A DNA stretch of 64,000 nt, taken from the NCBI GenBank assembly GCA_036785375.1, contig JAWMAR010000070.1, forward strand, positions 7,440,001 through 7,504,000, given 5' to 3'. Of this stretch, positions 4,841 to 52,068 are shown one piece after another. The notes beneath the pieces were generated by a model, which saw nothing but the letters and a program-made list of their open reading frames with translations, had not been told where the DNA came from and did not search any database. Both the position numbers and the translations under genes were made by a program. Source of the DNA: Leucoraja ocellata. Taxonomy: Eukaryota. The stretch's first letter is position 1. Each line of letters opens with the position of its first letter.

Positions 4841-5279
4841 ATCATTATTTATTTAATGTTTCACGTTTACACCAATCTCTCCACCACCACGAACAAGCAG
4901 CACAAGACGCGACAAGACAGACACCATTTTATGCAGATGCCGAGAAGTGTGATCAGCTCTGGCTGAACAACTAATCTTGTGTGTGGATTCGATAAGCAGA
5001 AGATTTAATGTCATAGTGTTATACAGTTATAGAGTGATACAGCATGGAAACAGGCCCTTCGGCCCAACTTGCCCACATTGGACAACATGTCCCAGCTACA
5101 CTAGTCCCACCTGTCCACGTTTGGTCCATATCCCTCCAAATCTGACCTATACCTGTTCCTGTCTAGCTGTTTCTTAAACGTCGGGATAGTTTCTGCCTCA
5201 ACTGCGATGGGTTGACCAGAACGAGACGTGGTGGAGACACAAGCAGGATGTGTGGGGCGCCTGGTTGGCCGCTGGCAGC

Positions 5280-5524
5280 TGGGATGACGTTGTTCTTGTT
5301 AAACGTTAACGGCTGATGCAACGACACGTTTGGCAGAGGGTGGAGAGGTCGCGGCTGACTCCGGCCAATGCTCCGTGGGAGGCAGTGATTGGTTGAATGT
5401 ACGTGAGGGCAGACAATGAGGGGCAGGAGAAGCCGGGAGTCGGTATAAAAGGAGCGAGCGATGGCAGGAGATGAGAACAAGACCGACCCCGTCACCCTGT
5501 GTGGAGACTCCGGAGCTGGTAACC
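5280..5524 (+). promoter_or_regulatory. Family promoter, putative non-coding exon 1 and splice donor (for the 6113 copy)
   Basis: CCAAT 5365, ERSE (CGTGG-N9-ATTGG) 5374-5392, TATAAAA 5444-5450, donor CTG|GTAACC at 5519. Acceptor cacccacAG at 6107-6108. Confidence 0.7.
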
Positions 5525-6112
5525 AACCCTGTGGATCCTTCAAGTGTCTGTGAGTGATGGGGGTGGGATTGTCTCTGTTCACTGTTCCCCCAGTTCAGAA
5601 GCCTGATAGCAGAGGGGAAGAAGCTGTTCCTGAGTCTGGTGGTGCGCGCTTTCAAGCTTCTGTACCTTCTGCTAGACAGGACCAGGGAGAAGGAGGAATG
5701 ACCGGGGTGGGACAAGTGATGGAGTCATAGAGTCACAGCGAGACCTTTGGCCCAACTTGCCCGCGCCCACCAACGTGTCCCCATCAATACTAGACCCACC
5801 TGCCTGCGTTTGGCCCTTACCCCTCTAATCCTGTCCTATCAATGTACCTGTCTAACTGTTTCTTAATCATTGTGATAGTACCTGCCTCAACTACCTCTTC
5901 CGGCAGCTCGTTCCAAACACCCTCCACCCTTTGTGTAAAAAAGTCACCCCTCAGTTTCCCATTAAATCTTCCCCCCCCCCCCCCCCCCCCCCCCTCGCCT
6001 TAAACCGATGTCCTCTGGTTCTCGATTCCCCAACTCTGGGCGGGTTCAGGGAATGTCATCATGAATCCTACTGAGTTGCAATAAGGTGACCCATTGTTTC
6101 ACCCACAGGAAC

Positions 6113-6662
6113 ATGGGACTGCAGAGATGGATAGGATTCATGGTCCTTGTGGAGATGGCGTGGCAAGTCTCCGCAACTGGAACAGGTCCGATCTCCAGAG
6201 AATGGGGAGAGGAAGCAAACTTGGCCGGGTGGAACGCACGGGCCCCTCGGCAAGTCACCAATGAACCGCTTCCAAGATGCACGAACGAGTCAGATTCTGA
6301 CAATGATCACGGTGCATCGAATAGCGATATTAGGCTCATTGCATCTCCGGGTGATTCTTTGACGCTGCCCTGTAAAATATCCAAAGATTACAAACAACTC
6401 TGGTTAGTTCAGTGGAGACAAAACGATGTTGAAATTGACAATTATAATGAGAAAACGTATGATGAATATACGGGATCTGATGTCCGCTGGATATTTGTGG
6501 ATCTAGAATTCCTTTGGGACTGGGACGGCTCGTTGCTCCTGAGGCATAAAAGAGAAAGATGAAGGGATATATTCCTGTGTTTGGTTCATTGATACTCATG
6601 TGTTATGTGAAGAATTGGCCCAGCTGACAATCCTCCCAATGATTCAGCAGGGCCCGACCTAG
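6113..6662 (+). pseudogene. Ig-V pro-protein gene, subfamily C (acidic), frameshifted
   Basis: Shared leader MGLQRWIGF...RAPR|Q, then TLPC and VQW. A 2-nt deletion near 6542 (ctg-a-ggc versus ctg-aca-ggt in A) shifts the tail GIKEKDEGIYSCVWFIDTHVLCEELAQLTI out of frame. Confidence 0.8.
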
Positions 6663-7779: not shown

Positions 7780-10700
7780 TTGCCTCCGCTGGTTTGTACG
7801 AGTAACTGCTAGGAAATGTAATGTCCTGCAGATCTATGTTGTAAGTAGATTTAATAAACATGTGTTGTATCTTGATATGTGTCCGACTCAGCTCATTACA
7901 TGATGTCCACCATGTCATGTTTTTTTAATTAGTTTATGTGTCTACTATATCCATCATGACACATTTTTGTCACCTTCCTAGTCCTGTGATCTTTGACTCT
8001 GACATTGCTGAACTCTGACGTCTTTTCGAGCATGACTACACTCATTATGCTGGCATTGTTCATCGCAACGACCCCCCCCAATGTGCGTGCTTTTGTGTTG
8101 CTCAACTTAGCGGGACCTGAAGCTATGAATCGCGCTGGCAATTTCACATTTGAGCCTGCTGTTCTGGATGCTAATGGTCAGGTCCTGGCGCCTGCTGAGA
8201 CGAATGACGACCCTGCTGTCTTACATGCAAAGTTCAGATGGTTGTGTGACCTGCACTCAAACTATATTATTGAACGGAGGTACACAAAAGTGCTGGAGAA
8301 ACTCAGCGGGTGCAGCAGCATCTATGGAGCGAAGGAAATAGGCGACGTTTTTCGGGCCGAAACCAAGGGCGAAGGAAATAGGAAATAGGTAACGTTTCGG
8401 GCCGAAACCCTTAAGGGTTTCGGCCCGAAACGTTGCCTATTTCCTTCGCTCCATAGATGCTGCTGCACCTGCTGAGTCTCTCCAGCATTTTTGTCTACCT
8501 TTGTTCCATTTGATCTTCCGTTTGTGCACGTCGAGTTGATTGCATTAGTCAAAACAGGGCGGACCTCGTGAAGTTTGCAATCTTCCACCCCTGACATATG
8601 ACGAAGGAATGGATCGACTGTGCTTGTATTCACTGGAATTTAGGATGAGACTGGAACTTATAAAAACATATAAAATTCTTAAGGGATCGGACAGACTAGA
8701 TAGATGCAGGAAAAATATTCCCGATGTTGGGGGAGTCCAGAACCAGTGGTCACACAGTTTAAGAATAAGGTCTCGGCCATTTAGGACTGAGATGAAAAAA
8801 AACCTTTTCACCCAGAGAGTTGTGAATCTGTGGAATTCTCTGCCACAGAAGGCAGTGGAGGCCAATTCACTGGATGTTCTCAAGAGAGAGTTAGATTAAG
8901 CTCTTAGTGCTAACGTAATCAAGGGATATGGGGAGAAAGCAGGAACGGGGTAATGATTTAGGATGTTCAGCCATGATCATATTGAATGGCGGTGCTGGCT
9001 CGAGGGGCCGAATGGCCTCCTCCTGCACCAATTTTCTATGTTTCTGCACAATCCCAACAAGGGTCAAAACTGGACTCTAATCAGCTGCTGCAACTGTGCA
9101 AGAGGCCAATGTAAGGGAGGCTCAGTGATACAGCTGTAGAGTTGCTGCCGTACAGCGCTAGTGACCCGGGTTCAATGCTGACTGTAGGTACTGTCTGTAC
9201 GGTGGTTGTACTTTTTCCCTATGACCGTGAGGGTTTCGCCCAGGTGCTACAGTTTCCTCACAGATGTCAAAGACGTGCAGGTTTGTAGGTTAATTGGCTT
9301 CAGTAAATTGTCCCTTGTGTGTAGGTTAGAACTAGTGTACGGGCGATCACTCAAGTTCAAGTGTTTAAGAGAGATTATTGTCATGTGTCCCTGATAGGAC
9401 AATGAAATTCTTGCTTTGCTTCAGCACAACAGAACATAGTAGGCACAAATATAGAACAGATCAGAGTTTCTCCAGCATTTTTGTGTACCTTTGATCTTCC
9501 AGCATCTGCAGTTCCTTCTTGAGCATATTATTGAACGGACCAAGTTTTATGCTCGTATGCAACAGGTTGGTGAACCAAAGGTTTTATCAGTGACTTAAAA
9601 CAAATGGCTGCACGCTGCTGATTTCAAGATCTCTGCGATGAACTCATCCATGACAAACTTGTCGGAGGAATGCTTGATAGCAAGTTACGGGGTGAACTTC
9701 TTTGTAATACTGACCTAACCCTTAATCAAGCAGAGCATGCCTGTTGGATGCTGAGATAACATCTTCCCACACTGAGTCTGTGTCCTCTGGTCACTGTTCG
9801 CAGCATAGTGTTAATCTTGCAGACTACTCCTCTTGTAACACCCACACAAGGTCTGTTCGATGTCAAAATTGCAACTATTTTCTTGCTAGGTGTCAGCAGT
9901 TCTGCGTTGCTTATGGTAAAGCCTGTAATTTCTGCAAGAAGTTAAACCACTTTTCTCGATGCTGCCGTTCCCGTGTGACTCAAGCAGCGTCAAGGATGAG
10001 CCTGCACCTGCTGCAACATGAGCTTGTTGATAATGACTTCCAAGAGCTTGATTTGCCATCCCCCGCTCCACTCTCAGAAAGTACAGATACCAGTTCTGCA
10101 ACCCATTCTCCCCTCCCTTCGTCTAACAAGCAACTTGACCCTGAGGTAACCATGTTTGTGATTAACAGGCCTTTAATCGCTAAGGTTGATACTGGCACAA
10201 AATGCAATGTCATCTCGTTAACAGAGTTTTAAAAATTCGTTATGCTGCATGTATTGAAAAGGCCTCGGCCACGCTTTGGACTTACGGGGGAGATGTTCTA
10301 CACCCTCTTGGACAAGCTGATTTAAAGTGCACCATAGACAAGCAGACTCATACTTTAAAGGTTTATATTGTTAAGGGGGATTCAGAGACTTTGCTCAGTA
10401 TCAACGCAATCCACGATCTAGGCCTGGTATAGTTTGGCTACGCCGTCCATCAAGACTTTCTCGCTGATGGACACACTCAACAGGTACTCTCTCAATACAA
10501 AGATCTGTTTAACGCCAAGCTTAGCAAATTGCCTATCAAATACCACATTGTTGTCGATCCCAACATAACTCCTGTGGTCCGAGAACCGCATCATGCTCTG
10601 CACGCCATGCGTGGCAGAGTAAACAATGAACTCAAGCGGATGGTCTCCATGGGTGTTATTGCCGAGGTTACAGACCCATCTGACTGGGTTTCCACAATGG

Positions 10701-11375
10701 TGGTCGCAACAAAGAAAAACAAAGAGGAGATCCATATCTGCATAAACCCCAGAGACCTTAACTGCCATCAAACGGCCACACTACCCAATGCGATTATTAG
10801 AGGAAGTTGCTGCTCAGGTAGGCAACACTTCAGTATTCTCCATTCTGGATGCCAAGAGCTCATTTTGGAAGATTCCACTGGACCCAGACACGTCAAATCT
10901 CATTTCATTCGGCACCCCCTTTGGCCGATACAAATTTCTGAGAATGCCCTTTGGCATCAACTATGCCAGCGACGTTTTCCAGCGCACGATGGAACAATTG
11001 TTTGTTGAGTACCCATGTGCCATCATTGTTGATGACATTCTCGTCTACAGACGTGATTGGACTGAACATGACGCCAATCTGAAGAAAGAACTATACAATG
11101 CCAAAGACATTCAGCTCAAACTCAATCCCTTGAAGGGCAAGTTTCGAGTTCCAGAAGATACTGACGTTGGACATGTCTTCACAAGTGATGGTCTCAGACC
11201 AGACCCATCAAAAACTGCACCTATCAACAAAATGCCGGTTCCTTGGAATGGTCAACTACCAGGGGAAATTTATTCCCAACCTCAGCGACATATCTGCCCC
11301 CTGTGGGAACTGACACACAAGGACGCTGCATGGTCATGGTATCCGCAGCACCAAAGAGTTTTCCATCAACCGTTC
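7780..11375 (+). mobile_element. Degenerate Gypsy/Ty3 LTR retrotransposon
   Basis: LTR end ...cattaca near 7900, gag with CX2CX4HX4C (CNFCKKLNHFSRCC), protease VDTG, RT FSILDAKSSFWKIPL...FLRMPFGI...IVDDIL. Stops and frameshifts present. Confidence 0.85.
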
Positions 11376-11611
11376 CTCAGCCCACCTGGCCATTATTTCA
11401 GGATGCTGCTGCAATTTATCACAACCATCTCCACTATCTGCAAAACCGCCTACTTTTGTGTCATCTCCCTTTACTTCTGTCCCTGTTTTGTTCCTGACAA
11501 CATTCCCTTTTACTTTTGTTCCTGTTCTCAACACCTGCGGACTCCATGATTTTCCACATGTTGTTCCGGCCCCGTGTGGTCATGGACAATGTTGGACACA
11601 GCTCATAGAAG

Positions 11612-12151: not shown

Positions 12152-12667
12152 TCACTTCACTGTCAGCTTGATATTTAGTCTACATTCCTTTTGGCCAGTG
12201 AACCAAGAGCAGGAATATATCCCAATATCAGTCTCGAGTAAACCTATGATGACCAACGAGGCATCCCGTGTCCCATCCACGTTTGTATTCATGAACCTCC
12301 AGCGGCCGACCCCCCCTGGATAAGTCGCTCCTTTCCCTTTAGTAAACACGCCCAGTATCCCGCTCCCTTTACTCCAGGTGATCATAAAATCCGCGGGTCC
12401 AGTCTTCCCTGTGGGTACTTTACAGGGTAGCGTAGCAGAACCACCCTTGCGTGCCGTCACATCCGTGAATTTCATCTTGTTCGCAGCTGGCTTAGCACCG
12501 CATTCTGGAGAACTTTGTTTTTTGCCTTGTCGAGGCTCCCGTGCGTTCCACCCGGGCAAGTTTGCTTCCTCTCCCCATTCTCTGGAGATCGGACCTGTTC
12601 CAGTTGCGGAGACTTGCCACACCATCTCCACAAGGACCATGAATCCTATCCATCTCTGCAGTCCCAT
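12152..12667 (-). CDS. Secreted single Ig-V-domain pro-protein, subfamily B (171 aa)
   Basis: ATG in aacATGG context just after the splice acceptor. Signal-like N-terminus, REPR|Q, and V-set motifs GGSATLPC, W, RDASL, DIGIYSC, KLTVK*. No TM segment. Confidence 0.85.
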   Translation of the reverse strand: MGLQRWIGFMVLVEMVWQVSATGTGPISREWGEEANLPGWNAREPRQGKKQSSPECGAKPAANKMKFTDVTARKGGSATLPCKVPTGKTGPADFMITWSKGSGILGVFTKGKGATYPGGVGRWRFMNTNVDGTRDASLVIIGLLETDIGIYSCSWFTGQKECRLNIKLTVK

Positions 12668-13282: not shown

Positions 13283-13630
13283 GGTTACCAGCTCCGGAGT
13301 CTCCACACAGGGTGACGGGGTCGGTCTTGTTCTCATCTCCTGCCATCGCTCGCTCCTTTTATACCGACTCCCGGCTTCTCCTGCCCCTCATTGTCTGCCC
13401 TCACGTACATTCAACCAATCACTGCCTCCCACGGAGCATTGGCCGGAGTCAGCCGCGACCTCTCCACTCTCTGCCAAACGTGTCGTTGCATCAGCCGTTA
13501 ACGTTTAACAAGAACAACGTCATCCCAGCTGCCAGCGGCCAACCAGGCGCCCCACACATCCTGCTTGTGTCTCCACCACGTCTCGCTTTGGCCACCCATC
13601 GGACCAGATGTCCCAGCCACGCCACGTCAC
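13283..13630 (-). promoter_or_regulatory. Family promoter and exon 1 (for the 12152 copy)
   Basis: TATA 13357-13363 (rc), ERSE 13415-13433, UPRE-like TGACGTGG 13622-13629 (rc), donor near 13288. Confidence 0.7.
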
Positions 13631-18277: not shown

Positions 18278-20109
18278 GATAGAGTTAAGAAACAAGGATA
18301 GCACTCGGAAAGGATGGAAATTAGTGCAACTAGAATGCCAGTGGGCAGAGGAACAAGAGAATAGAATTAAAAGACAGACTGGAGGTGAGAAACAAGTGAT
18401 GGTTCGTAAAAAATAAACCCAGTACTGGTAAATCCTCTGGAGGAGACTTCATGTCTGGCACGACAACCCTATTTGGTAATGAAGATGAGGAGTTAGATAA
18501 TCTTGAGAGATGTCTACCAGTAGCAATGGCATCTTTACCTGGGACAGTTCCGTCAGTAACATCCCTATAACTTGAAGTTCTGACATTACAAAGCTCCCCA
18601 GGATTGGGAGCACGGGAATCCCTTTCTGTGTGTAACTTGTTTAAGGCATTGATGCTACCAGAACAGCTGGTCATTATTAAATGTACTGCATACACTGGTG
18701 CTGGGGACCCTATAGCAAAAGGCAATGAGTTGCCGATAGTGTATCCAAACAGGCAGCCTGTACATCCAAATGCATAGTGACAGCAGCTAAACAGATGCTA
18801 GCAAATAGAACGGTCCTGCCAAACATGAGGGAGGTATGTACATTACAGAGGGACGCCTCTTATATATAAAATAACTATGGAAACAAGAGGGCTGTGCCAT
18901 TAATTCAGCACACCCCGCTTGGACAAGTTGGTGTATACGATACATTTTTACCCGTCTTACCCATGCTGGTAAGGAGGGAATGATAGGATAACAAAGGAAA
19001 TGTGGTGGCACCCGAAAATTTGATAAGAGGCACTGAAGCAGGCCTCTGAATGTAAAATTTGCCAATGAAATAATCCAGGCAAACCAATTAGGATACCCTC
19101 AGGGGTGACGCCAATGCCATCATGATCGTTTGAATGCATACAGATTGATTTTATTGAGATGCCAAGGGCCCAGTGTTATAAATATTGCGTATTGATTTTA
19201 GATTTATTTAGTAGGTGGAGTGAAGCTCTACCAACCACCAATAATAAGGAAAATGTGCACATTTTAATATCTGACAGAAATTCACTGTACACACCACCCA
19301 CTGGTATCTGGGATGGTGGAAAGAGTCAATGGGGATTGCAAAACAAAATTACCCCGGAGGTAAATCCTTTTCCTGACAAGCAACTATGTTATAAAAATTG
19401 GGGATGAAGGAAAATTCAATGGAGAAATGAGGATAGAATAGGGAGACTGAATAGTCAAGGGCAGTCTGACTAATCATGATCTGGATCAATGTCCAATTAG
19501 GGTTAGGTGACCAGGATTTTGGTCAACAGAAGTCTTGTCAGAAAAAGGGAAAGTAAATTACAAAGAGATGTCTTTGAAGATGAAATATTATATACTGCTG
19601 GTAAAACAATGTTTTTGTATATGTACTGCTTGTAAAACAATGTTTTTTGTATGTGGAATGTGTGAAATTCGAAGCAATGAGCAAAGTTGTGTGTCGCTTT
19701 AAATAGTTTGTCCTTTAAAATGCAAATAGACAAAGTTTATGGTGTGCTCAGTTAAAGAAACAGGCATGAATGGGGGGCGGAGCTATACTCGATGATAAAA
19801 TGTGTTGGTTGATTATAAATCTTTTGAACCAAGTTTAAAAAAAAAGACTCATCCCGATTAAAGTGTTAAATGAGATTGGAAATGTCAAAATTACAGAGAA
19901 AAGAAAATGTATTATTGATTACTGATTCTGAATGAGTTTTTTTGGGAAAGATTGTTTTGATATGATAACAGAGGTTGTCTTTTAAAATGTAAATGAAGCA
20001 AGATTACTGTTTTCAAGCAAACAAAAAGATGTTGCTGTAGCATGTGCTGTGTGAGTGAAATGAAGGTGTGAATGTGTGAAGATAAAGCTTTAGATGTAAA
20101 AGGGGCAAA

Positions 20110-22638
20110 AACGGACCACAATATGGTCGAATTCCATATTCAAATAGAAGGGGAGCAGGTTGAAACTCAGGCTAGGGTGCTTAGTCTAAATAAGGGGGAT
20201 TATGAAGGTATGAGGACTGAGCTGATCAAAGTTGACTGGGATAGCAGACTCAAGAATAAGACGGTACATGAGCAGTGGTGTACGTTTAAGGGTATACTGT
20301 ATAATCTTCAAGAAAAATTTATTCCTATGAAGAAAAAAAGGGGTAAGGGTAAGAACAGTCAGCCATGGCTCAGTAAAACTATAAAGGATAGTATTCGGCT
20401 GAAAGCAAGGGCATATAAGGTAGCCAGAGATAGTGGGAGGGTAGAGGATTGGGAAGCATTTAAAGGTCAGCAAAAAATAACTAAGAGATTAATTAAGACG
20501 GGGAAAATAGATTATGAAAGGAATTTAGCGAACAACATAAAAACTAATAGTAAGAGTTTTTATAGCTATATAAAAAGAAAAAGGGTGGCTAAGGTGAACG
20601 TTGGTCCATTGGAGGGTGAGACTGGAGAGTTGTTGGTGGGGAACATGGAAATGGCAAAGGCATTAAACGAGTATTTTGTATCAGTCTTCACCATAGAAGA
20701 CACAAAAAATATTCCAACGCTGGATAAACAGGGGGCGGTAGGAATGGAGGAGCTAAATACTATTAAGATCACCAAGGAGGTGGTATTAGGGAAATTAATG
20801 AGACTGAAGGAGGATAAATCCCCTGGGCCTGATGGATTACATCCAAGGGTCTTGAGGGAGATAGCGGTGGGGATTGTGGATGCATTGGTGATAATTTTCC
20901 AAAACTCCCTGGAGGCAGGAACGGTCCCAGTGGATTGGAAAATGGCCAATGTAACACCTATATTTAAAAAAGGAAGTAAACAGAAGGCGGGTAACTATAG
21001 ACCGGTTAGTCTAACATCGGTGGTGGGTAAAATGTTAGAGACAATTATTAAAGAAACACTAACGGGGCACTTGGATAAACATGACTTCATCGGACAGAAC
21101 CAGCATGGTTTTGTGAAGGGGAAGTCCTGTTTAACGAATCTGCTCGAATTCTTTGAGGAAGTAACAACCCGGGTGGATAAAGGGGAACCGGTGGATGTGG
21201 TATACTTGGACTTCCAAAAGGCTTTTGACAAGGTGCCACATAAGAGACTATTGCTAAAAATAAAAAATTATGGGATTGGGGGTAATATATTAGCATGGGT
21301 AGAGGATTGGCTAACAAATAGGAAGCAGAGAGTGGGGATAAATGGTTCATACTCGGGATGGCAACCGGTAACTAGCGGGGTTCCGCAGGGGTCGGTGCTG
21401 GGACCCCAGTTGTTCACAATTTATATAAATGATTTGGAGGAGGGAACCAAGTGTAATATATCAAAATTTGCGGACGATACAAAAATGGGAGGAAAAGTAG
21501 GGGATGAGGAGGATAGGAAGAGTCTGCAAAAGGATATAGATAAGCTAGGTGAGTGGGCAACAACTTGGCAGATGAAATTTAATACTAATAAATGTGAAGT
21601 CATTCACTTTGGGAAAAAAAATGATAGGGCAAGTTATTTTCTAAATGAGGAGGAGCTGCGTTGTAATGCAACGCAAAGGGATCTAGGGGTATTAGTACAT
21701 GAATCACTGAAAGTTAGTATGCAGGTGCAGCAAGCAATCAGGAAGGCCAATGGAGTTTTGGCCTTTATTGCTAGGGGGATTGAGTATAAAAACACGGAGG
21801 TCTTGCTGCAGCTGTACACAGTATTAGTGAGACCACATTTGGAATACTGTGTACAGTTCTGGGGTCCATACTTAAGAAAGGATGTACTAGCCCTGGAGGC
21901 AGTGCAGCGAAGGTTTACAAGATTAATTCCTGCAATGAGGGGATTGACATATGAGGAAAGGTTAAGTAGGCTGGAACTCTACTCTTTGGAGTTTAGAAGA
22001 ATGAGAGGCGATCTCATTGAAACATATAAGATCGTGAGGGGCCTTGATCGGGTGGATGCACCGAGGATGTTCCCAATGATCGGGGAAACTAGAACTAGGG
22101 GACATAGTTGCAGAATAAGAGGGGGCTCTTTTAAAACTGAGATGAGGAAGAACTTCTTCACCCAGAGGGTGGTTAATTTATGGAATTCACTGCCCCAGGG
22201 AGCAGTGGAAGCAGAAACTTTAAATATATTTAAGACAAAAATAGATGTTTTTTTAGCTGCCAAGGGGATAAGGGGCTACGGGGAGAGGGCAGGGATATGG
22301 ACCTAGGTATGGTTAGTATAGTAAGACCTGAGTGATCTCCTGGACAAGTGTCGATCGCCTGGATTGGGGTCGGAGAGGAATTTCCCGGATTTTTTTCCCG
22401 AATTGGACCTGGGTTTTTATCCGTTTTTTTGCCTCCCCCAGGAGATCACGAGGTTCTTGGGGTGGAGAGGGGTGATAGCGGTATAAGGGGGAGGGTAGTG
22501 TCTTGTGTTCTGTGTCTTGTGTCTACTGTTTGTGGGTAAGTGTGTCTGTTTAGTGTTCAGCCATGAGCGAATGGCGGTGCGGGCTCGACGGACCTGGTGG
22601 TCTACTCTCGCACCTACTTTCTATGTTTCTATGTTTCT
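20110..22638 (+). mobile_element. Young 5'-truncated CR1-type LINE with uninterrupted ORF2 (RT), nested in the ERV
   Basis: 744-aa open frame 20072-22306 with SPGPDG, YRPVSL, LDFQKAFDKV, GVPQGSVLGP, FADDTK. Tail (tttctatg)n. Confidence 0.92.
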
Positions 22639-28968: not shown

Positions 28969-29481
28969 TCACATCACTGTCAGCTTGGTATTTAGTCTAC
29001 ATTCCTCTTTGCCAGTGAACCAAGCGCAGGAATACATCCCAACATCACTCTTCTGTAAACCCGTGATGACCAACGAGGCATCCCGTGTCCCATCCACGTT
29101 TGTTTCCTTGAACGACCAGCGGCCGGCCCCCCCTGGATAGGTCGCACCTTTCCCTTTAGTAAACACGGCCAATGTCCCCTTCCCTTTACTCCAGGTGACA
29201 GCAAAGTTGCTGGGTCCATCCTTCCCTGTGGGTACTATACAGGGTAGCGTAGCAGAACCACCCTTTGCCGTCACATCCGTGAATTTCATCTTGTTCGCAG
29301 CTGGCCTAGCACCGCATTCTGGAGTATCTTGTTTGTTGACTTGTCGAGGCTCCCGTGCGTTCCACCCGGGCAAGTTTGCTTCCTCTCCCCATTCTCTGGA
29401 GATCGGACCTGTTCCAGTTGCGGAGACTTGCCACACCATCTCCACAAGGACCATGAATCCTATCCATCTCTGCAGTCCCAT
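28969..29481 (-). CDS. Secreted single Ig-V-domain pro-protein, subfamily B (170 aa)
   Basis: Same architecture: GGSATLPC...TWSKG...RDASL...DVGMYSC...ECRL..LTVM*. Confidence 0.85.
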   Translation of the reverse strand: MGLQRWIGFMVLVEMVWQVSATGTGPISREWGEEANLPGWNAREPRQVNKQDTPECGARPAANKMKFTDVTAKGGSATLPCIVPTGKDGPSNFAVTWSKGKGTLAVFTKGKGATYPGGAGRWSFKETNVDGTRDASLVITGLQKSDVGMYSCAWFTGKEECRLNTKLTVM

Positions 29482-30056: not shown

Positions 30057-30405
30057 GGTTACCAGCTCCGGAGTCTCCACACAGGGTGACGGGGTTGGTC
30101 TTGTTCTCATCTCCTGCCATCGCTCGCTCCTTTTATACCGACTCCCGGCTTCTCCTGCCCCTCATTGTCTGCCCTCACGTACATTCAACCAATCACTGCC
30201 TCCCACGGAGCATTGGCCGGAGTCAGCCGCGACCTCTCCACCCTCTGCCAAACGTGTCGTTGCATCAGCCGTTAACGTTTAACAAGAACAACGTCATCCC
30301 AGCTGCCAGCGGCCAACCAGGCGCCCCACACATCCTGCTTGTGTCTCCACCACGTCTCGCTTTGGCCACCCATCGGACCAGATGTCCCAGCCACGCCACG
30401 TCACC
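30057..30405 (-). promoter_or_regulatory. Family promoter and exon 1 (for the 28969 copy)
   Basis: TATA 30131-30137, ERSE 30189-30207, TGACGTGG 30396-30403 (rc). Confidence 0.7.
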
Positions 30406-32274: not shown

Positions 32275-32520
32275 CTGGGATGACGTTGTTCTTGTTAAAC
32301 GTTAACGGCTGATGCAACGACACGTTTGGCAGAGGGTGGAGAGGTCGCGGCTGACTCCGGCCAATGCTCCGTGGGAGGCAGTGATTGGTTGAATGTACGT
32401 GAGGGCAGACAATGAGGGGCAGGAGAAGCCGGGAGTCGGTATAAAAGGAGCGAGCGATGGCAGGAGATGAGAACAAGACCGACCCCGTCACCCTGTGTGG
32501 AGACTCCGGAGCTGGTAACC
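32275..32520 (+). promoter_or_regulatory. Family promoter and exon 1 (for the 33093 copy)
   Basis: ERSE 32370-32388, TATAAAA 32440-32446, GTAACC donor near 32515. Confidence 0.7.
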
Positions 32521-33092: not shown

Positions 33093-33632
33093 ATGGGGCT
33101 GCAGAGATGGATAGGATTCATGGTCCTTGTGGAGATGGTGTGGCAAGTCTCCGTAACTGGAACAGGTCCGATCTCCAGCGAATGGGGAGAGGAAGCAAAC
33201 TTGGCCGGGCGGAACACACGGGCGTATTTCAAAGTCACCAATGAACCGCTTCCAAGATGCACGAACGAGTCAGATTCTGATGCCATCAGTCATCACCCAT
33301 CACCGATTAACAAGAAGGTGCTCGTTGCATCTCTGGGTGGTTCTGTTACGTTGCCATGTAATATATCCATCCTTAAAAATCATTACAGGGTTGTTCAATG
33401 GAAAAAAGATGGTGTTCAAATTGCCAGTTTCCATGAGAGAGCGTATGCGCGTTATACGGGGTCTGATGTTCACTGGAAGTTCGTTGATCACAACGTCTAT
33501 ATGGCTCAGGACGCCACGTTGCTCCTGACAGGTGTAAAAGAGGAAGATACAGGGACGTATTCCTGTGTTTGGTTCCATTATAGAGATAGACCGTTTTGTG
33601 AATTATTGATGCAGCTGATGATCTCTCACTGA
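33093..33632 (+). CDS. Secreted single Ig-V-domain pro-protein, subfamily A (179 aa)
   Basis: Shared leader, RNTR, GGSVTLPC, VQWKKDG, QDATL, DTGTYSC, FCELL. Sequons NES and NIS. No TM segment. Confidence 0.85.
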   Translation: MGLQRWIGFMVLVEMVWQVSVTGTGPISSEWGEEANLAGRNTRAYFKVTNEPLPRCTNESDSDAISHHPSPINKKVLVASLGGSVTLPCNISILKNHYRVVQWKKDGVQIASFHERAYARYTGSDVHWKFVDHNVYMAQDATLLLTGVKEEDTGTYSCVWFHYRDRPFCELLMQLMISH

Positions 33633-38789: not shown

Positions 38790-39035
38790 CTGGGATGACG
38801 TTGTTCTTGTTAAACGTTAACGGCTGATGCAACGACACGTTTGGCAGAGGGTGGAGAGGTCGCGGCTGACTCTGGCCAATGCTCCGTGGGAGGCAGTGAT
38901 TGGTTGAATGTACGTGAGGGCAGACAATGAGGGGCAGGAGAAGCCGGGAGTCGGTATAAAAGGAGCGAGCGATGGCAGGAGATGAGAACAAGACCGACCC
39001 CGTCACCCTGTGTGGAGACTCCGGAGCTGGTAACC
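38790..39035 (+). promoter_or_regulatory. Family promoter and exon 1 (for the 39614 copy)
   Basis: ERSE 38885-38903, TATAAAA 38955-38961, donor near 39030. Confidence 0.7.
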
Positions 39036-39613: not shown

Positions 39614-40153
39614 ATGGGACTGCAGAGATGGATAGGATTCATGGTCCTTGTGGAGATGGTGTGGCAAGTCTCCGCAACTGGAACAGGTCCGATCTCCAGA
39701 GAATGGGGAGAGGAAGCAAACTTGGCCGGGCGGAACGCACGGGCGTATTTCAAAGTCACCAATAAACCGCTTCCAAGATGCACGAACGAGTCAGATTCTG
39801 ATGCCATCAGTCATCACCCTTCACCGATTAACAAGAAGGTGCTCGTTGCATCTCTGGGTGGTTCTGTTACGTTGCCATGTAATATATCCATCCTTAAAAA
39901 TCATCACACGGTTGTTCAATGGAAAAAAGATGGTGTTCAAATTGCCAGTTTCCATGAGAGAGCGTATGCGCATTATACGGGATCTGATGTTCACTGGAAG
40001 TTCGTTGATCACGACGTCTATATGGCTCAGGACGCCACGTTGCTCCTGACAGGTGTAAAAGAGGAAGATAAAGGGACGTATTCCTGTGTTTGGTCCGTAT
40101 ATAGTGGTAGACCGTTTTGTGAATTATTGATGCAGCTGATGATCTCTCACTGA
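39614..40153 (+). CDS. Secreted single Ig-V-domain pro-protein, subfamily A (179 aa)
   Basis: Paralog of the 33093 copy with 13 amino-acid differences. Intact ORF. Confidence 0.85.
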   Translation: MGLQRWIGFMVLVEMVWQVSATGTGPISREWGEEANLAGRNARAYFKVTNKPLPRCTNESDSDAISHHPSPINKKVLVASLGGSVTLPCNISILKNHHTVVQWKKDGVQIASFHERAYAHYTGSDVHWKFVDHDVYMAQDATLLLTGVKEEDKGTYSCVWSVYSGRPFCELLMQLMISH

Positions 40154-45307: not shown

Positions 45308-45552
45308 TGGGATGACGTTGTTCTTGTTAAACGTTAACGGCTGATGCAACGACATGTTTGGCAGAAGGTGGAGAGGTCGCGGCTGACTCCAGCCAATGCT
45401 CCGTGGGAGGCAGTGATTGGTTGAATGTACGTGAGGGCAGACAATGAGGGGCAGGAGAAGCCGGGAGTCGGTATAAAAGGAGCGAGCGATGGCAGGAGAT
45501 GAGAACAAGACCGACCCCGTCACCCTGTGTGGAGACTCCGGAGCTGGTAACC
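45308..45552 (+). promoter_or_regulatory. Family promoter and exon 1 (for the 46129 copy)
   Basis: ERSE 45402-45420, TATAAAA 45472-45478, donor near 45547. Confidence 0.7.
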
Positions 45553-46128: not shown

Positions 46129-46665
46129 ATGGGACTGCAGAGATGGATAGGATTCATGGTCCTTGTGGAGATGGTGTGGCAAGTCTCCGCAACTGGAACA
46201 GGTCCGATCTCCAGAGAATGGGGAGAGGAAGCAAACTTGGCCGGGCGGAAGGCACGGGCTCCTCGACAGGTCACCAATGAAACGCTTCCAAGATGCACGA
46301 ACGAGTCAGATTCTGATGCCATCAGTCATCACCTATCAACGATTAACAAGAAGGTGCTCGTTGCATCTCTGGGTGGTTCTGTTACTTTGCCATGTAATGT
46401 ATCCAACGTTGACAATAGTCCCGAGGTTACATGGAATAAAGATGGTGTTGAAATTGCCTATTTCCATAGTAGAGTGCATGAGCGTTATACAGGATCTGAT
46501 GTTCACTGGAAGTTCGTGCAACGAAACGTCCTTTGGGAACAGGACGCCACGTTGCTCCTGACAGGTGTAAAAGAGGAAGATAAAGGGACGTATTCCTGTG
46601 TTTGGATCAAGTATCGTCAGAAACCGGTTTGTGAATTATTGATGCAGCTGATGATCTCTCACTGA
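46129..46665 (+). CDS. Secreted single Ig-V-domain pro-protein, subfamily A (178 aa)
   Basis: Leader ending RKARAPR|Q. Same framework as 33093 and 39614 but with different loops. Confidence 0.85.
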   Translation: MGLQRWIGFMVLVEMVWQVSATGTGPISREWGEEANLAGRKARAPRQVTNETLPRCTNESDSDAISHHLSTINKKVLVASLGGSVTLPCNVSNVDNSPEVTWNKDGVEIAYFHSRVHERYTGSDVHWKFVQRNVLWEQDATLLLTGVKEEDKGTYSCVWIKYRQKPVCELLMQLMISH

Positions 46666-49600: not shown

Positions 49601-50687
49601 GGATAAAGCGGAAAGTTAATTTCAATGAGGTCCTCCCCCTGACATCACTGGAAGCTGCTGGTCGACCACTCCCCCTTTGTGACATCACTCGAAGGGGGGT
49701 GAAGGTTTGCCGTTTAATAAGTTGGTTTTCACTATTTTTAAAACGCTATAACTTGTGAACTACAGCATGTAATGTGAAGTGGAGCAGTTTATTTTGTCAA
49801 AGGGGTTAATGTGATTAATAATGTGCGGAGGAGGGGAGGAGGAGAGGGGAGAGAAGGAGGAGGGTGTAGACGAGGGGGAGGGAGTGTAAGAGACTCGCCT
49901 GCGCAGTTGTGGGGTATGGGTGAGTGGTGGAATATTACGTTGGGGGGACGGGTACATCGCAAAGGAATCTCATTTAGATTTCTTGGGAGGAGGCTTTTCA
50001 TTGTGGGGGGTGGAATTGCTGAGAGGTTTCATTTACTCCTTATTTATAAAATAATTACGATTGTGGGGAGGGGTGGGTTGGGGGGCGGGGGCTCCCCGTT
50101 TCATTGTGGGGGGGTGGAGTAAGAGAGAGGTTTCATTTCCCAGAATTTTCTTGTGGGAGGGTGGGGGTGAGTATTGTGGGGTAATGGGGTGAGTGTGGAA
50201 TATTACGTTGGGGGAACGGGACCCAACGGGTCACACTTGGGTCTAGTTATCATTATTTATTTAATGTTTCACGTTTACACCAATCTCTCCACCACCACGA
50301 ACAAGCAGCACAAGACGCAACAAGACAGACACCATTGTATGCAGATGCGAGAAGTGTGATCAGCTCTGGCTGAACAACTAATCTTGTGTGTGGATTCGAT
50401 AAGCAGAAGATTTAATGTCATAGTGTTATACAGTCATAGAGTGATATAGCATGGAAACAGGCCCTTTGGCCCAACTTGCCGTATTGGACAACATGTCCCA
50501 GCTACAATAGTCCCACCTGTCCACGTTTTGGTCCATATCCCTCCAAATCTGACCTATCCCTGTTCCTGTCTAGCTGTTTCTTAAACGTCGGGATAGTTTC
50601 TGCCTCAACTGCGATGGGTTGACCAGAACGAGACGTGGTGGAGACACAAGCAGGATGTGTGGGGCGCCTGGTTGGCCGCTTGGCAGC

Positions 50688-50935
50688 TGGGATGACGTTG
50701 TTCTTGTTAAACGTTAACGGCTGATGCAACGACACGTTTGGCAGAGGGTGGAGAGGTCGCGGCTGACTCCGGCCAATGCTCCGTGGGAGGCAGTGATTGG
50801 TTGAATGTACGTGAGGGGCAGACAATGAGGGGCAGGAGAAGCCGGGAGTCGGTATAAAAGGACGCGAGCGATGGCAGGAGATGAGAACAAGACCGACCCC
50901 GTCACCCTGTGTGAGAGACTCCGGAGCTGGTAACC
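50688..50935 (+). promoter_or_regulatory. Family promoter and exon 1 (for the 51516 pseudogene)
   Basis: ERSE 50782-50800, TATAAAA 50853-50859. Confidence 0.65.
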
Positions 50936-51515
50936 AACCCTGTGGATCCTTCAAGTGTCTGTGAGTGATGGGGGTGGGATTTGTCTCTGTTCACTGTTCC
51001 CCCAGTTCAGAAGCCTGATAGCAGAGGGGAAGAAGCTGTTCCTGAGTCTGGTGGTGCGCGCTTTCAAGCTTCTGTACCTTCTGCTAGACAGGACCAGGGA
51101 GAAGGAGGAATGACCGGGGGTGGGACAAGTGATGGAGTCATAGAGTCACAGCGAGACCTTCGGCCCAACTTGCCCGCGCCCACCAACGTTGTCCCCATCA
51201 ATACTAGACCCACCTGCCTGCGTTTGGCCCTTACCCCCCTAATCCTGTCCTATCAATGTACCTGTCTAACTGATTCTTAATCATTGTGATAGTACCTTGC
51301 CTCAACTACTTCTTCCGGCAGCTCGTTCCAAACACCCTCCACCCTTTGTGTAAAAAAGTCACCCCTCAGTTTTCCCATGAAATCTTTCCCCCCCCTCGCC
51401 TTAAACCGATGTCCTCTGGTTCTCGATTCCCCAACTCTGGGCGGGGTTTCAGGGAATGTCATCATGAATCCTACTGAGTTGCAATAAGGTGACCCATTGT
51501 TTCACCCACAGGAAC

Positions 51516-52068
51516 ATGGGGACTGCAGAGATGGATAGGATTCATGGTCCTTGTGGAGATGGTGTGGCAAGTCTCCGCAACTGGAACAGGTCCGATCTCC
51601 AGAGAATGGGGAGAGGAAGCAAACTTGGCCGGGCGGAACGCACGGGCCCCTCGGCAAGTCAACAATGAACCGCTTCCAAGCTGCAACGAATGACTCAGAT
51701 TCTGACAGTGATCACGGTGCATCGAATAGCGATATTAGGCTCATTGCATCTCCGGGTGATTCTTTGACGCTGCCCTGTAAAATATCCAAAGATTACAAAC
51801 AACTCTGGTTAGTTCAGTGGAGACAAAACGATGTTGAAATTGACAATTATAATGAGAAAACGTATGATGAATATACGGGATCTGATGTCCGCTGGATTTT
51901 TGTGGATCTAGAATTCCTTTGGGACTAGGACGGCTCGTTGCTCCTGAGGCATAAAAGAGAAAGATGAAGGGATATATTCCTGTGTTTGGTTCATTGATAC
52001 TCATGTGTTATGTGAAGAATTGGCCCAGCTGACAATCCTCCCAATGATTCAGCAGGGCCCCGACCTAG
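51516..52068 (+). pseudogene. Ig-V pro-protein gene, subfamily C, frameshifted with premature TAG
   Basis: Duplicate of the 6113 copy carrying the same 2-nt deletion, plus extra indels and TGG>TAG at 51926-51928. Confidence 0.75.

Follow-up and report, generated by a model that had tools for sequence, protein, structure and literature searches.

ER-stress-type motifs in the shared upstream block of a clustered single-IgV gene family in the skate Leucoraja ocellata

The window and its genes

The 64-kb stretch of DNA analyzed here (the window; C70:7,440,001-7,504,000) carries nine genes of one kind, laid out alike: a 5' block leads into a first exon, which is followed by a repeat-containing intron and then by a single coding exon specifying, in order, a hydrophobic leader, a short propeptide, a V-set domain and a stop. 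In the first copy, on the plus strand, the block (5205-5716; promoter, exon 1 and start of the intron) is homogenized, with 97-99% identity across the nine window copies. Exon 1 spans 5461-5549, with a putative 5' end and its donor GT at 5550. In exon 2 the coding frame of copy 1 (6113-6562), which covers signal peptide, propeptide and IgV, is frameshifted and stops after 149 aa.

Intact genes of the basic class ('B') lie on the minus strand at 12152-12667 (171 aa; ERSE 13415-13433, UPRE 13622-13629), 28969-29481 (170 aa; ERSE 30189-30207, UPRE 30396-30403), 55599-56114 (171 aa; ERSE 57476-57494) and 59484-59999 (171 aa; ERSE 60706-60724), the last with a product 96% identical to that of Leucoraja LOC129708941. 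Intact A-class genes lie on the plus strand at 33093-33632 (179 aa; ERSE 32370-32388, no UPRE), 39614-40153 (179 aa; ERSE 38885-38903) and 46129-46665 (178 aa; ERSE 45402-45420). The two broken window genes are copy 1 and the copy at 51516-51988 (plus strand; ERSE 50782-50800), whose frame is disrupted directly after the start. From 50612 to 51988 this copy differs from all others by several 1-nt insertions, in promoter, exon 1 and exon 2; it is either a true pseudogene or a site of local consensus errors. About 21 nt past the stop codon of the A-class genes stands a donor-like GTCAGT (window 46687), which may mark one more, non-coding exon, or be what is left from an ancestor that was bound to the membrane. 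The window also holds long open reading frames at 20072-22306, 10607-11549, 53407-54261 and 61906-63132, which we take to be LINE reverse transcriptase and LTR/DIRS-type retroelement fragments from their resemblance to these; a Pfam scan of the frames at 53407-54261 and 61906-63132 gave no match.

The preliminary description of this DNA had placed an ER-stress element (ERSE) with an exact 9-nt spacer about 50 nt upstream of TATAAAA in every gene copy. Nine out of nine copies do carry it, on the strand opposite to the gene, at a measured distance of 51 nt in eight and 52 nt in one. In copy 1 this ERSE-I (CCAAT-N9-CCACG, reversed relative to the gene) occupies 5374-5392 on the minus strand, and the TATAAAA box 5444-5450 on the plus strand. 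The neighbors named in the same description, a second CCAAT, ATGACGT and TGATGCAAC, are all in place as well. Counted over the family's 61 promoters on C70 and two on C16 (described below), the ERSE is found in 61/61 and, proximally and with a changed spacer, in 2/2; the second CCAAT box, of NF-Y type (5365-5369, plus), in 61/61 on C70; and CTGATGCAAC, an exact ATF4/CARE consensus (5313-5322, plus), as a 9-nt core in 60/61 and as a site in 2/2. ATGACGT, a CRE-like half site (5284-5290, plus), is present in 61/61 on C70 and changed in both C16 paralogues, and is on this comparison the weakest element of the set. A sequence one mismatch from the UPRE, AGACGTGG (5224-5231, plus), occurs in 53 of the 61 C70 promoters and in both of those on C16.

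Within the 64 kb the exact CCAAT-N9-CCACG is met nine times, as one identical 19-mer each time, against a shuffle mean of 0.08, and none of 100 shuffles reached nine. Self-alignment establishes, however, that the nine blocks are duplicates of one 512-nt block, so that the shuffle P overstates the case and the proper unit of evidence is one promoter. The nine-fold recurrence reflects duplication, not convergence, and was rejected as statistical evidence. For the single promoter, the ERSE alone has a P of about 0.001 (0.0014 per 300 nt). The UPRE TGACGTGG lies at 13622, 30396 and 60913, exactly as reported, in three of the four basic-class window genes. Three in 64 kb is not above chance (18 of 100 shuffles reach three), and all three are one homologous site, ~197 nt upstream of the ERSE; the copy at 60913-60920 (minus strand) belongs to a full-length promoter, and the C16 paralogues carry the other consensus variant. 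The gene at 55599-56114 has no UPRE because its promoter is cut 184 nt upstream of the ERSE.

A clustered family with a homogenized 5' module

Genome-wide (3.44 Gb), the exact 19-mer ERSE occurs 61 times, always within C70:6.99-7.52 Mb. The 604 kb of C70 cluster DNA examined contain 57 coding exons, and the promoter stands on the 5' side of 57/57: the block does belong to the IgSF genes, as had been supposed, as the proximal upstream region of a predicted secreted IgSF family. By a length filter 50 of the 57 coding exons are intact, and one more is lost only to the start-codon pattern. Four ERSE-bearing C70 promoters have no coding exon (7,260,715, 7,512,132, 7,035,114 and 7,351,382), two being interrupted in the intron by retroelement-like DNA and two cut just downstream of the ERSE. 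A genome-wide search with the ERSE-TATA pattern adds an intact and a broken gene, both on C16, whose promoters are ~90% identical. A dispersed high-copy repeat had been named as the outcome that would undo the original reading; the block is not dispersed, since 65 of 65 genome matches to a 29-mer, at up to three mismatches, lie at the two family loci on C70 and C16.

The C70 array comprises two collinear blocks of 32 and 25 genes with an N gap between them, 99.4% identical over long stretches and 95-98% in the flanks. These may be two haplotypes scaffolded in tandem, which would put the haploid gene number at perhaps 25-32. The genome's GH18 chitinase cluster (C70:6.93-7.96 Mb; L011-L064) encloses the array and is interleaved with it; chitinase genes stand within the array at about 7,049-7,058 kb and 7,366-7,374 kb, and the 61 GH18 matches in the genome are confined to C70 and the small contig C4096. 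The IgV/chitinase segment as a whole occurs in two copies, at C70:6,985,005-7,312,929 and from 7,313,130 onward, each of them beginning right after an N gap at a nearly equal position. At L018:5760-7410 an IgV gene and a chitinase gene stand head to head with their promoters ~1.5 kb apart.

Profile searches located homologues only in Leucoraja (L. erinacea, up to 96% identity), Rhinoraja longicauda and Narcine bancroftii; the library search took in the best 150 of 2702 matches, mostly multi-Ig proteins, which may hide weak shark homologues. On this distribution the predicted secreted single-IgV family is at least batoid-wide. It seems undescribed: NCBI names its products 'uncharacterized' or 'nectin-1-like', the literature search returned no paper with the family's LOC identifiers, and its topical listings contained neither the family nor its motif combination.

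The V-set fold is well shown. The Pfam V-set model scores above cut-off in five of five members scanned; C82, W98, D147, Y151 and C153 (the B-F disulfide, the C-strand Trp and DxGxYxC) are invariant across the family; AlphaFold models a V-set domain with confidence beginning near residue 51; and Pfam, AlphaFold and Foldseek together place it in the V-set IgSF, V-type sheet included. The closest folds are the V-set domains of CAR, nectin, TIM and TIGIT (22-33% identity, E about 1e-7), and the PDB sequence search and ESM Atlas returned generic V-set matches only. Two extra cysteines, also invariant in the family, probably form a second disulfide. Before the domain stands R-x-P-R in 40 of the 50 intact genes and its first Arg only in the remaining 10, while the Narcine protein retains PRQ at the propeptide site; this is a candidate cleavage site. 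The signal peptide and its cleavage site were read by eye and predict secretion.

Three known groups call for comparison. Nectins have a V-C2-C2 ectodomain plus a transmembrane segment. The skate proteins share the V-set fold with nectin, CAR, TIGIT and TIM (NCBI names the Narcine homologue 'nectin-1-like'), but consist of one domain and a stop, without a membrane anchor, with a propeptide and with the two additional invariant cysteines; nectin family membership is ruled out, since in the 50 intact genes the exon that encodes the G strand also supplies the stop codon behind it. Ig/TCR V segments have a split leader exon and a J-type G-strand motif; here leader and V share one exon and the last strand lacks FGxG/WGxG, which rules them out too. 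The VCBPs of amphioxus and Ciona are secreted, non-rearranging, diversified V-domain proteins linked to chitin binding, and each chain combines two V domains with a chitin-binding domain. With a single V and no chitin-binding domain in the Pfam scan of five members, the skate proteins are not VCBPs, although secreted non-rearranging V domains are common to both and the skate family sits among chitinase genes. Shark UrIg, as outlined in PMC12227049, is a further secreted, non-rearranging V-domain protein, distinct from the skate family. The skate chain has neither a chitin-binding nor a constant domain, and its likeness to VCBPs and UrIg does not imply homology.

Homogenization of the 5' end is set against divergence of the V domain. 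Representatives of six V classes (mature amino-acid identity 27-51%) are, between classes, 99.3% identical at the nucleotide level in the promoter, 99.7% in exon 1, 99.0% in the first 160 nt of the intron and 95.8% in the leader, versus 60% in the V region, 59% in the 3' flank and 52% further upstream. The leader shows 0.028 synonymous differences between classes and the mature part 0.41, which argues for gene conversion rather than protein constraint. Pooled pairwise dN/dS within the two large classes is 1.98 and 1.77; counted conservatively, the values drop to 1.57 (P 0.054) and 1.37 (P 0.096), above 1 but not significantly so; diversifying selection on the V domains is likely, not established. 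Conotoxin and frog skin peptide precursors have a comparable homogenized 5' part and hypervariable mature region. The salivary SSSGP families of the Hessian fly show the same homogenized-5'/variable-mature pattern (PMC2955719), and share with the skate family a tandem and inverted cluster, a homogenized promoter, 5' UTR, intron and signal peptide, and secretion; the skate family differs in its vertebrate IgV fold, its UPR-type motifs and a 3' flank that is not homogenized (the 59% between classes). It makes a clear vertebrate case of a homogenized 5' module beside a hypervariable mature domain.

The promoter taken as a single case

Reduced to one promoter, the block is still unusual, judged by its motif content. 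With the four motif definitions given in PMC10700025, among them UPRE, (C/A)CACGTCA; ATF4/CARE, (A/C)TGA(T/C)GCAA(T/C); and ERSE-I, CCAAT-N9-CCACG, the full-length promoter and both C16 promoters have exact ERSE-I, UPRE and ATF4 sites, and A-class promoters have ERSE-I and ATF4 sites. The UPRE is present in 17 of 61 C70 promoters (the basic class and two orphans) and in 2/2 on C16, and missing from 44/61. Composition-matched simulation gives probabilities per 300 nt of 0.0014 for ERSE-I, 0.056 for the UPRE and 0.0046 for the ATF4 site, with a product of 3.6e-7; none of 300,000 simulated promoters had three of the four motifs. ERSE and ATF4 site alone come to 6e-6 per 300 nt. At an assumed 25,000 promoters, ~0.01 with three motifs and ~0.16 with ERSE plus ATF4 site would be expected per genome. 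ACGT cores number six, against 1.1 expected (P 0.0003), and some 526 kb of cluster DNA outside the promoters contain no ERSE and no ATF4 site.

Other counts are less generous. Given two CCAAT boxes, the probability of an ERSE is ~0.7% per promoter. Across the genome the ERSE-TATA combination shows no enrichment (35 matches outside the family versus 87 for reversed controls, which lack the CpG and are hence more frequent), and two of three non-family matches inspected are GC-poor and not promoter-like. A human screen (PMC5890977) yielded 535 ERSE-I matches, most of them of putative function. Moreover, the motifs first came to notice through visual inspection of a single stretch among a very large number scanned, which is counted against the favored explanation set out below.

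Known promoters offer close likenesses to the individual elements. The 9-nt core of CTGATGCAAC is the reverse complement of the CARE of the human CARS gene, the element mutated in that gene (PMC5175342); compared with the ATF4 CARE genes of that paper, the skate core is identical, on the opposite strand, and fits TGATGxAAx, and in the skate it is joined with an ERSE on a multigene IgSF family. The likeness to ER chaperone promoters extends further. The skate's own hspa5 (promoter and first exons at L070:6500-7850; G000:C13, minus strand) came up as a match to the forward pattern, was recognized as BiP from its reading frame and served as a control. Its promoter combines a canonical ERSE and a UPRE with four CCAAT boxes and five ACGT cores; the ERSE/UPRE system thus exists in the skate genome and looks alike there. 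Common to the family, to skate hspa5 and to the ER chaperone promoters treated in PMC8301375 (HSPA5, HSP90B1, CALR) are the exact CCAAT-N9-CCACG, several CCAAT, a UPRE and a TATA box, a CpG-rich composition, and a non-coding first exon. Orientation and spacing differ: the family ERSE is reversed and 51 nt from TATA, that of hspa5 forward and 14 nt from its TATA box. So does the product, which is predicted secreted cargo and not ER machinery, and an ATF4 site is added. ERSE, UPRE and CARE are already known elements; their combination on a diversified secreted IgV family was not found in print and appears new.

C70 and C16 promoters differ at 28 of 280 nt. Only one of these differences falls within the 40 motif bases, and there the UPRE switches between its two consensus variants (P 0.066; 0.010 when only consensus-breaking changes are counted). 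The C16 promoter is no more conserved than the adjoining intronic repeat, however, which makes this footprint test weak. On C16, ATGACGT and two other ACGT cores have changed and CCACG is kept. An inverted 51-nt duplicate of the ERSE region lies ~260 nt upstream of the C16 ERSE (L066:3916-3966), with the ancestral spacer and a decayed CCACG; the loss of CCACG from this non-proximal duplicate is a single event. Across the family there are at least seven distinct 5' breakpoints, 122-350 nt upstream of the ERSE. Six of them cut off the UPRE, and all stop short of the ATF4 site and the ERSE.

Regulation, expression and competing readings

ATF6 binds CCACG only with NF-Y on CCAAT, and XBP1s binds both ERSE and UPRE and maintains highly secretory cells (both as set out in PMC8301375). 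The reading that we favor, at slightly better than even chances, is that a promoter of UPR/ATF4 type, homogenized by gene conversion, drives a diversifying repertoire of secreted binders in a restricted secretory tissue. The block would be a working proximal promoter of the UPR/integrated-stress type, on which NF-Y at the CCAAT boxes would license ATF6 or XBP1s at the ERSE and ATF4-C/EBP would occupy the CARE; promoters of the basic class and of the C16 pair might, through their UPRE, recruit XBP1s or a CREB3-family factor as well. The promoter would have arisen once and then been carried by tandem duplication over about 30 genes per block, gene conversion holding promoter, exon 1 and signal/propeptide near-identical while the V domains diversify. 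Such a composite NF-Y/bZIP promoter might be off in the majority of tissues and drive strong expression wherever these factors are abundant, with all members responding together. Under its control, single-IgV binders that are secreted and matured by proteolysis would be co-regulated, either in a professional secretory tissue of restricted kind or in response to ER load. The repertoire would most likely serve mucosal or innate defense. For the proteins themselves, a role as mucosal or innate defense binders is a guess to which we give about even chances; recognition proteins of the reproductive tract are a distinctly less favored guess, and signaling or structural secretions take up what is left.

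ERSE, UPRE and CARE are known mainly from ER machinery and metabolic genes; if the favored reading is true, UPR factors drive secreted cargo directly, via one shared triple-motif promoter. What had been proposed at the outset, wiring to the UPR or to a professional secretory-cell program, is supported in part: the exact ERSE-I, ATF4 and UPRE sites and the hspa5-like promoter favor it, and the 44 of 61 promoters without a UPRE, the ATGACGT changed on C16 and the RNA data do not. Exon 1 and exon 2 of a basic-class gene have zero depth in three of three RNA runs at 86% likeness, repeat reads only being found; the runs are one oligo-dT and two single-cell (~1.6-1.9 Gb read of each, 1-5% of each), from unspecified tissue and an organism that may differ from the assembly's, the single-cell libraries being perhaps 3'-biased. 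As modest evidence, the three empty runs argue against ubiquitous expression, not against gland-specific expression, and they sit more easily with a tissue-restricted secretory program than with a chaperone-like UPR target active everywhere. Since reads from a ubiquitous ERSE gene should have turned up in such runs, the favored reading has to assume an extra tissue gate. A search of sequencing runs listed no RNA run containing the family.

The same data suit an ordinary tissue-specific NF-Y/TATA promoter whose bZIP sites are served by CREB/ATF, C/EBP or CREB3L and which has no ER-stress response, the exact ERSE spacing being coincidental or vestigial and its retention in all copies due to gene conversion. 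To this possibility, unlikely but of real weight, may be credited not just the RNA runs without reads but the descent of all copies from one ancestral sequence, the dispensability of the UPRE, the footprint P of only 0.066, and the ~0.7% chance of an ERSE beside two CCAAT boxes, which is not negligible over a genome. It must in turn accommodate the co-occurrence, within 300 nt, of three UPR motifs whose definitions are independent (3.6e-7), the architecture shared with skate hspa5, and a CCACG that on C16 is kept despite changes in the spacer and in nearby ACGT cores and is lost in the non-proximal duplicate. Should the ERSE prove inert, what was first noticed would reduce to a product of duplication, and the family would keep a moderate interest.

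The start of transcription near 5470-5480 that had been predicted was not confirmed. A 900-nt Logan contig encodes a 202-aa form starting at the equivalent of the ATG at 5461, which lies 17 nt after the start of the TATA box. Because 900 nt cannot fit this form unspliced, the family is transcribed and spliced somewhere, and because the contig reaches that ATG, some RNA begins upstream of the predicted start, a further point against a chaperone-like role of the generic kind. It is conceivable, if improbable, that the main start itself lies upstream of a merely TATA-like box, giving the 202-aa form with a 31-residue extension and placing some motifs in or near the 5' UTR. Leucoraja NCBI models of 202-221 aa do use the 5461 ATG, adding that extension from exon 1, and agree with the contig on the spliced form; the ATG is in good context and in frame with exon 2. 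But the equivalent ATG is out of frame in the C16 copy examined, the Rhinoraja model begins at the second ATG without the extension, the extension of the Narcine model is unrelated, and TATAAAA is kept on both C70 and C16. Assembled contigs can also extend on minor transcripts, and the Leucoraja models may be over-extended.

An origin from mobile DNA, such as a solo LTR recruited beside the genes, or by promoter capture from a gene for an ER chaperone, is very improbable, and for recent elements largely refuted: sharp 5' boundaries against repeats and one 12-nt hspa5-promoter match at the UPRE (E 0.026) speak for it, whereas the 65 29-mer matches keep to the family loci, searches with two promoter versions list only family loci among the 40 of 65 candidates scored each time, and there is no extended similarity to the promoters of hspa5 or of neighboring chitinases. 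Accordingly a dispersed repeat or LTR was rejected on the confinement of the copies, capture from hspa5 on matches of only 10-12 nt, and capture from a chitinase promoter on the one examined (L018), which has GATA-like sites, CCAAT and a TATA box and no ERSE.

The favored reading of a UPR/ATF4-type promoter admits a bolder version, which we regard as doubtful: a non-rearranging repertoire of tens of secreted, loop-diversified single-V binders among chitinases, the whole set gated by one gene-converted promoter that responds to all three UPR arms, with ER load in a mucosal secretory cell turning on defense cargo. As part of this version, and no less doubtful, the skate array among chitinases would be a split, vertebrate analogue of the VCBPs.

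In run X19 one contig is identical to window 60476-60952, a span of 477 nt that comprises promoter and exon 1, while no contig of the run covers the V domain at 86% likeness.
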